Shown here in pieces: positions 8,102-8,300 of a DNA stretch of 29,667 bases (positions are counted from its first letter, which is position 1; each line of letters begins with the position of its first letter). A program made the translations under genes and the position numbers. The DNA comes from an uncultured bacterium (lineage in GTDB: Bacteria > Bdellovibrionota_C > UBA2361 > SZUA-149 > CALKYB01), in the NCBI GenBank assembly GCA_938022485.1, contig CALIEE010000181.1:1-29667 (forward strand). The letters run 5' to 3'. The notes below the pieces were generated by a model. The model had not been told where the DNA came from. It did no database searches and was given only the letters and a program-made list of their open reading frames with translations.

Positions 8102-8300
8102 AAAAGATTACATCAAACCAACTTACGAACCTTTCTAACTTACCTACTTCAGCAGCGATCTGAAAATCAAGATTTTCAGTCCGCAATGAGGTCAAAACGC
8201 TGCAAGTTTTCGCGTTTTGGAAACTTAGCTCAACGTCTGGCAATTTCGACGACCGCTTTGCGGTCTTTCGAGCCAGACGTCCAACTGAGCTACCTGGGCA
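8083..8300. repeat. Perfect 20-bp direct repeat (8083-8102 and 8281-8300) corresponding to tRNA-Phe nt 1-19 plus one upstream base
   Basis: ccaactgagctacctgggca occurs twice, 198 bp apart. Confidence 0.97.
8151..8184. repeat. Palindrome built from tRNA-Phe anticodon-arm sequence
   Basis: AGCAGCGATCTGAAAATC-AA-GATTTTCAGTCCGC. The right arm is a 14-nt exact copy of the anticodon arm; the left arm is a 16/18 inverted copy. Confidence 0.9.

Follow-up and report, generated by a model that had tools for sequence, protein, structure and literature searches.

The hairpin that precedes the tRNA-Phe gene in the DNA analysed here (the window, 29,667 nt in full) is most likely one component of a small, polymorphic pseudo-tRNA insertion and no stand-alone regulatory invention, with template switching as its most likely origin. 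Positions 8102-8300 form one unit, and what reads as a leader is the 5’ half of tRNA-Phe, interrupted between nt 19/23 and nt 27. We judge it probable, though well short of certain, that this unit is a copy of a genus-specific, non-coding pseudo-tRNA element of ~150-200 bp, mobile or duplicative in nature, which sits in the 5’ part of tRNA genes and whose palindrome was generated by template switching. Direct repeats of the tRNA’s first 19-24 nt mark the ends of this element, and an intact tRNA is therefore regenerated downstream. The case is built on the anatomy of the unit, its homology to copies at tRNA-Arg genes, the existence of filled and empty insertion sites, its restriction to one genus and the conservation of the hairpin.

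Anatomy of the unit upstream of tRNA-Phe

The working gene, an intact tRNA-Phe(GAA) of 73 nt without an encoded CCA, lies on the minus strand at 8029-8101 (start 8028/8029; ARAGORN; Rfam RF00005, 72.9 bits, E 1.9e-15). It is the only tRNA in the window and the single tRNA-Phe detected in the assembly, which is 70% complete. Its first 19 nt, together with the preceding T, occur twice on this strand at a spacing of 198 nt: as the 5’ end of the working gene (8083-8102), and as an exact copy recovered by repeat search at 8281-8300, which marks the upstream boundary of the unit. The similarity of the two 5’ copies extends a few bases upstream, giving a 27-nt repeat at 89%. In the sole other genomes of the same genus, referred to as G001 and G002 (the present assembly being G000), the boundary repeat at tRNA-Phe spans 23 nt (23/23) and 19 nt with one mismatch, respectively.

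The interval between the 5’ fragment and tRNA-Phe is 179 bp long and non-coding. Read on the tRNA strand, the copy of tRNA nt 1-19 is followed by a two-hairpin module, a third hairpin, a spacer and the intact tRNA. The module corresponds to a ~96-nt structured insert (8185-8280) between the 5’ copy and a 14-mer from the anticodon arm. Hairpin 1 (8233-8280, minus strand; 48 nt) consists of nested stems, its outer stem reaching into the copied D arm (arms 8219-8241 / 8272-8294), and is supported by folds and by a covariance model of the module, R1, at 95 bits. Hairpin 2 (8194-8218, minus strand), recovered in folds and in the module alignment, has a 7-bp stem and an 11-nt loop here; in G001 and in the copies at tRNA-Arg genes, the stem measures 8 bp and the loop is of the GNRA type. 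Hairpin 3 is separated from the working tRNA by a 49-nt spacer (8102-8150, minus strand), which contains a weak extended -10-like sequence, TGATGTAAT, at 8107-8115.

Hairpin 3, the pseudo-anticodon arm (8151-8184, minus strand; paired part 8155-8184), is seen in the repeats and the folds and is kept in G001 and G002. Positions 8171-8184 are an exact 14-nt direct repeat of tRNA-Phe nt 27-40 (8062-8075); a TT on the tRNA strand (8169-8170) separates this sense segment from an antisense one, 8151-8168, which forms an 18-nt inverted repeat with 8062-8079 (tRNA nt 23-40) at 16/18 positions (89%). Locally, the two segments make up a 14-nt palindrome (8155-8168 / 8171-8184) with a 2-nt centre and 12/14 matches. 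As a control, the 400-nt upstream flank was shuffled 200 times (mononucleotide shuffles): the longest exact sense match did not exceed 10 nt (observed: 19 and 14), and the best antisense 18-mer reached 15/18 in 3/200 shuffles and 16 in 0/200. Given that the shuffles never matched the observed repeats, the hairpin is real and non-random. The original prediction had described precisely this arrangement of sense 14-mer, TT and 16/18 antisense segment, and repeat search and shuffles bear it out; the hairpin as an object thus stands, although it is only one part of the larger unit 8102-8300.

Further tRNA-related sequence surrounds the unit. Upstream of it, debris similar to the 3’ strand of module hairpin 1 (ATTGCCAGA...) lies at 8377-8392, and G001 has an extra fragment of D arm and half a module upstream (L007 ~1975-1890, minus strand); together, these remnants suggest that older, more decayed insertions may be stacked between an RDD-family gene and tRNA-Phe. 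Downstream, and outside the unit, a trailer segment beginning 7 nt past the tRNA (8004-8021, minus strand; repeat search) is antisense to tRNA nt 34-44, with 11 nt exact. It is absent in G001 and present in G002, where it is duplicated along with a downstream partial tRNA copy. That copy (L006, minus strand, ~50-230 nt downstream of tRNA-Phe) comprises nt 28-55 and is split in its T loop by an insert, mostly N, that lies between direct repeats of 14 nt (CCCGCTTTTACCAA); beyond it come the acceptor 3’ end and the trailer, here for the second time. Antisense copies of the anticodon arm also lie 7-27 nt past tRNA-Phe in three genomes from two other families of the order (G015, G010, G018), the one in G018 matching the stem variant of that genome’s own tRNA. 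Tandem units consisting of nt 40-73, or of nt 22-35, a small insert and nt 40-73, occur with spacers downstream of tRNA-Phe in other families of the order (L010, L014, L024, L013), one in G010 and up to three in G018 and G024. Throughout the order, small duplications or integrations seem to have recurred in the interval between tRNA-Phe and holA.

Conservation within the genus

Both relatives retain the whole unit, at 83% identity in G002 and 73% in G001, and all three hairpins are kept. Conservation of the motif in relatives had been proposed as a test of the original prediction, and hairpin 3 is found in both genomes, where few other parts of the unit, the tRNA copy aside, are as well conserved. 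RNAalifold reports 7 pairs with changes on both sides over the three genomes, one of them in hairpin 3: in G001, a U-A pair has become A-U through changes on both arms, leaving a perfect 14-bp palindrome. Two further pairs of hairpin 3 alternate between G-C and G.U among the genomes. G001 carries extra copies, namely the older upstream fragment and a copy downstream of the real tRNA-Phe that consists of nt 10-23, the module and decayed nt 27-73 and adjoins holA; the spacer ends of its upstream and downstream copies are alike.

The site at tRNA-Phe is filled in 3/3 genomes of the genus, all of them incomplete assemblies (66-93% complete), and no empty Phe site was seen among them. The unit is absent at tRNA-Phe in the 28 other genomes of the order. 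Searches of metagenome contigs through the neighbouring HolA protein gave 117 pattern matches and 0 confirmed relatives, and an exact-pattern scan of metagenome contigs for the palindrome centre returned 8 loci, all in unrelated contexts (rRNA leaders, coding regions).

Homologous units at tRNA-Arg genes

All 22 tRNAs of the assembly were scanned for pieces of themselves in their flanks, and no intact tandem tRNA duplicates were found among them. At tRNA-Arg(ACG), an exact copy of the tRNA’s nt 1-24 lies 172 nt upstream of the gene. It is followed by a homologous two-hairpin module, the tRNA’s own anticodon stem on a minimal loop, and a GCGGTGG backbone, which is like the T stem of tRNA-Phe and unlike that of tRNA-Arg. 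The presence of a Phe-like backbone in the Arg(ACG) unit therefore points to transfer between loci. The same site is empty in G002, where the conserved flank runs directly into the tRNA. Alignment of the two genomes resolves the filled site of G000 into the same flank, nt 1-24, 148 bp and the complete tRNA, that is, a 172-bp insertion which starts exactly at nt 1 and is bounded by a 24-bp direct repeat (24/24) equal to tRNA nt 1-24. G001 has no module at this gene.

The situation is reversed at tRNA-Arg(TCG), which is empty in G000 and filled in G002. Here, the ancestral flank adjoins a decayed 5’ copy, and a run of N that may represent masking or a gap separates module starts, of which there are at least two. 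Comparison of filled and empty Arg sites thus assigns the anticodon-stem remnant to the inserted material. The anticodon loop differs from copy to copy: it is disabled by the palindrome in the upstream Phe copies, carries a 1-nt deletion in the downstream copy of G001, is lost in the Arg-ACG copy and contains an 11-nt insertion in the Arg-TCG copies.

The 3’ fragments at tRNA-Arg(TCG) track the T-stem and acceptor variants of their own tRNA in G000 and G002, which probably reflects concerted evolution. Seen directly at this gene, the same process probably also operates at tRNA-Phe, where it would explain the exact 19-nt and 14-nt matches.

Other partial self-copies accompany tRNA genes of this assembly. 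Downstream of each tRNA-Arg gene lie 3’ fragments whose insert is of another kind, a three-way junction. The pseudo-fragment at tRNA-Arg(TCG) comprises the 3’ side of the anticodon arm, a ~65-nt three-way-junction insert, and the T loop and acceptor 3’ end (contig C311, L033:999-2950; in G002, L042:1780-1880), and the same type of insert occurs 3’ of tRNA-Arg(ACG) on C95. At tRNA-Arg(TCG) of G000, two such 3’ fragments, the second at 90% identity, bracket 1.65 kb with remnants of a P4-type integrase (Arm-DNA-bind_3, Phage_int_SAM_3); judged by its sequence, this region is a decayed island with long att repeats. Partial upstream self-copies are also present at tRNA-Ile and tRNA-Val. The one at tRNA-Ile(GAT) (contig C86:3038-3114, L035) consists of nt 1-8, filler and an exact nt 13-47, with a hairpin akin to module hairpin 1 inserted at the junction of variable loop and T arm; farther along lies an 11-nt antisense of nt 42-52.

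The two-hairpin module

Searches with R1, the covariance model built from the module, covered 31 genomes of the order and 124 of the phylum and found the module in one genus only (3/31 and 3/124 genomes). It follows a tRNA 5’ copy at tRNA-Phe (G000, G002 and two copies in G001), tRNA-Arg-ACG (G000) and tRNA-Arg-TCG (G001 and G002). In its second context, a 77-nt short form of the module is found inside a ~385-bp MITE-like intergenic repeat, TA-flanked and hairpin-ended, which carries the motif TATACTGAAACC and lies between housekeeping genes. Over 20 copies of the module, 92% of cells are paired, compared with 20-41% when the partners are slid, and 13/24 pairs have changed on both sides. Helices 1-3, which form hairpin 1, are 85-93% paired with 10/19 pairs changed on both sides; helix 4, corresponding to hairpin 2, is 96% paired with 3/5 pairs changed. 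Mismatches in these copies comprise 8 G.U and 7 A.C. A strand call from these two classes, in which three sequences had favoured the tRNA strand, was dropped once the 20 copies gave 8 versus 7. The structure is thus real, and because G.U and A.C are balanced it fits DNA or RNA, and either strand, equally well.

The MITE-like repeats end in hairpins of the form TATAC-N7...N7’-GTATA, in which the variable N7 covaries. They were located at L051:1410-1796 and L044-L055 in G002, L045 and L048 in G000, and L047 and L050 in G001. These loci have no match in Rfam, and no IS630-type DDE_3 transposase domain was found in the three genomes of the genus.

Transcription signals and known RNA classes

No consensus sigma-70 promoter is present in 7300-8600. 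A lenient scan recovered TTGAAA-16-TATCGT in G002 only and no promoter conserved in all three genomes; the spacer 8102-8150 offers weak -10-like matches only, and any promoter there would be putative. The filled and the empty genome share a conserved promoter-like region upstream of the insertion at tRNA-Arg(ACG), which suggests that the unit may be read through as a leader at this gene. There are no terminator-like sites in 7300-8600, and hairpin 3 runs into GCUGCUGAAG instead of joining a G+C-rich stem to a U tract. A search of 7000-9500 against Rfam 15 with E up to 10 returned the tRNA itself and chance-level matches, none of them in 8102-8300 on the tRNA strand.

Several candidate classes were discarded. 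T-box and terminator readings of the hairpin were dropped on sequence grounds. A group I or archaeal-type intron was rejected, as the downstream gene is complete and the interrupted copies have no matching acceptor 3’ strand, and a hammerhead or other small ribozyme was rejected given that the core motifs are absent and Rfam gives no match.

Discussion

Drawn as a circle, the unit would be a pseudo-tRNA: nt 1-23, a ~90-nt module replacing nt 24-26, an anticodon-arm remnant, a decayed T-arm-like backbone and the spacer. The hairpin at 8151-8184 would correspond to the anticodon arm of this pseudo-tRNA, in which the 7-nt loop, paired with its own inverted copy, now extends the stem almost perfectly, most likely as the result of one replication template-switch event with the anticodon stem as the return point. 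Of the readings that the original prediction had offered, template switching fits the anatomy best: the stem is kept, and the loop is followed by 2 nt, the reverse complement of the loop and an in-register return, such that sense nt 27-40, 2 nt and the complement of nt 40-27 lead into the original 3’ stem strand. The palindrome-free proxies for this comparison are the working tRNA and the downstream copy of G001, whose arm is of normal length but bears a 1-nt deletion; the unit is found in none of the outgroups. Concerted evolution would probably hold sense arm and 5’ repeat identical to the working gene, and the change on both arms in G001 could be accounted for by self-correction of the palindrome.

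Insertion might have occurred through site-specific or homologous recombination between tRNA-like blocks. A crossover in the 5’ block would yield the arrangement seen here, and a crossover in the 3’ block would yield the downstream copy of G001; crossover of one circular unit in either block predicts the similar spacer ends of the two G001 copies. If the unit were co-transcribed with the tRNA, the local hairpin would form first and keep the antisense segment occupied, and the hairpin probably has no dedicated regulatory role. Several points weigh against the element. No recombinase or transposase is linked to the unit, and the tyrosine recombinase genes found in the three genomes lie away from tRNAs and modules. 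A double-stranded circle of ~200 bp is a physically awkward intermediate. The strong conservation of hairpin 3 could reflect selection and, as to the lack of function, the units may be transcribed as leaders and act as RNA.

The last point leads to an explanation that we hold to be rather improbable, namely a functional cis-acting leader RNA that steers folding of tRNA-Phe or its processing by RNase P, either as a decoy or by transient pairing with the anticodon arm. It would be in keeping with a hairpin that occurs in 3/3 genomes of the genus with a change on both arms and G.U variants, with the lack of a terminator between unit and tRNA, and with the conserved promoter-like region upstream of the Arg(ACG) insertion. 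Moreover, in the minimum-free-energy fold of the G000 precursor the antisense arm does pair with the real anticodon arm, and the duplex of antisense arm and tRNA is predicted at -24 to -28 kcal/mol, compared with -10.6 to -19.9 for the hairpin. The suboptimal folding called for by the original prediction, carried out as partition-function folds of the three orthologous precursors, does not extend this to the relatives, however: the probability of pairing between antisense arm and real tRNA is 0.56 in G000, 0.06 in G002 and 0.00 in G001, and the local hairpin wins in G002 (0.63) and G001 (0.91). In G001, both arms moved jointly away from the tRNA sequence, a double change that preserves the hairpin but weakens pairing with the real tRNA. 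Units at the tRNA-Arg genes have no loop-antisense segment at all, are dispensable there as judged by the empty sites of sister genomes, and the unit is missing at tRNA-Phe of the 28 other genomes; Rfam holds no match, and coordinated changes of both arms can be produced by template switching alone (PMC8794818). The GCUGCU stretch, regarded before as a toehold for invasion, is probably no designed extension, given that TGCGGTGG-type backbone follows the equivalent hairpin in the Phe copy of G001 and in the Arg(ACG) copy; the stretch resembles a decayed variable loop and T stem. A conserved strand-displacement switch or anticodon decoy, as originally envisaged, is thus unlikely: invasion is predicted in G000 only, the G001 change goes against it, the Arg units have no antisense segment and the toehold is shared backbone.

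The palindrome might instead act at the DNA level, as duplex or extruded, by being bound or cleaved during integration or excision in the manner of the core-type inverted repeats of tyrosine recombinases or the subterminal hairpins of HUH transposases. Such a recombination site, which we consider unlikely, would suit the presence/absence polymorphism with its precise repeat boundaries, the recurrence of anticodon-arm palindromes beside tRNA-Phe fragments in other families of the order (G010, G018), the clustering of fragment boundaries at tRNA nt 40 and the balance of G.U and A.C in the module, which gives no sign of an RNA strand. Yet the direct repeat ends at nt 19-24, in the D arm and away from the palindrome, the units at tRNA-Arg genes have a short stem or none at the position of the palindrome, and a search for a linked recombinase found none. 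The 2-nt centre is also unlike the overlap regions of tyrosine recombinases, which measure 6-8 bp. Plain decay of tandem tRNA-Phe duplicates, with the upstream copy as a dead paralogue that acquired a repeat insertion and random rearrangements, would dispense with a mobile unit altogether and could draw on the 27-nt repeat at 89% upstream of both 5’ copies, the duplication of trailer and tRNA in the downstream copy of G002 and the tandem partial tRNA-Phe arrays of other families. We regard this as quite improbable in view of a homologous module at the same position in three different tRNAs, the Phe-like backbone in an Arg copy, an Arg(ACG) insertion placed exactly after nt 24 with a repeat exactly from nt 1, and the lack of intact tandem duplicates among the 22 tRNAs.

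The pseudo-tRNA element, our preferred explanation, invites a more far-reaching proposal, which is tentative at best: the genus could harbour miniature (150-200 bp), non-autonomous mobile elements of a new class, module-interrupted pseudo-tRNAs that integrate in the cognate tRNA gene through its D-arm/5’ block, regenerate its 5’ end and are transcribed as structured leaders. If so, selection might have favoured the extended hairpin as a way to keep a tRNA-like arm from mispairing with the real tRNA or titrating its enzymes. We are aware of no described tRNA integration at the D-arm/5’ sublocation. Where a tRNA gene is accompanied by partial copies of itself, these are usually taken for the scars of islands measured in kilobases; here, the entire insertion is ~200 bp and occurs at three tRNA species, and sister genomes differ in whether they have it. 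Should the units prove independently mobile, no smaller elements that target tRNA genes would be known to us, and the side of the gene they use would be the 5’ (D-arm) one. In that case, hundreds of structured nucleotides, including an antisense anticodon arm, would precede a possibly single-copy essential tRNA, and the locus would provide a natural test of the leader structure that pre-tRNA processing tolerates. For annotation, the unit serves as a warning that covariation in such hairpins need not imply RNA function.

Comparison with known systems

Displaced fragments of the cognate tRNA are a standard signature of genomic islands, with a 5’ fragment in 159/3919 islands (PMC4383910), and this signature has also been described for integrative elements (PMC9897764). 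The unit resembles the scars catalogued by Islander in that a full tRNA stands next to a fragment of like orientation, the gene is restored by the inserted DNA and the 5’ fragment lies upstream (nt 1-19 at 8281-8299). A conventional case of this signature within the same genome is the 1.65-kb region with P4-type integrase remnants at tRNA-Arg(TCG). Presence and absence between genomes, a further hallmark, is seen for the Arg(ACG) and Arg(TCG) units, and the Phe site is filled in all three genomes. Unlike those islands, for which an integrase gene between fragment and gene and a length of at least 2 kb are expected, the unit is 150-200 bp long and lacks an integrase; the D arm (nt 19-24), and not the anticodon or T loop, is where its repeat ends, and the inserted DNA is itself a module-interrupted pseudo-tRNA. 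CIMEs, att-flanked elements that lost their genes for integration and transfer (PMC6323972), provide another parallel. As in these elements, intact flanking repeats occur without recombination genes, and the enzyme would presumably be provided in trans. In contrast to CIMEs, several loci share one miniature size and architecture, and mobilisation is hypothetical. To our knowledge, the CIMEs described so far are much larger deletion derivatives of ICEs.

Closer to home, the ~385-bp MITE-like repeats of the genus have the two-hairpin module in common with the unit, complete with covariation, whereas the tRNA-linked units have no MITE ends or TA flanks and are bounded by tRNA 5’ repeats instead. 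The likeness of the unit to MITEs is one of size and copy number only, as terminal inverted repeats are absent and the flanking repeat consists of 19-24 nt of tRNA. A co-located repeat is also known from the E. coli tyrT locus, where distal 178-bp repeats giving rise to rtT RNA include a piece of the tRNA and are co-transcribed with the tRNA gene. These repeats differ from the unit in that they lie downstream, reuse the 3’ end of the tRNA, have no pseudo-anticodon palindrome and share no module with other tRNAs.

Template switching creates and repairs perfect stems and gives rise to coordinated changes on both arms (PMC8794818), and quasi-palindrome mutations that create or perfect hairpins in this way have been documented (PMC8794818, PMC7202029). 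Hairpin 3 shares with such products a reverse complement beside its template, an in-register return at an existing stem and a joint change of both arms in one lineage; unlike the documented cases, the event considered here is deduced from one locus in three genomes. Taken together, the family would seem, from its sequence organisation, to be a variation on the known theme of insertion into tRNA genes: tiny, free of an integrase, bounded by a D-arm repeat and itself a pseudo-tRNA.
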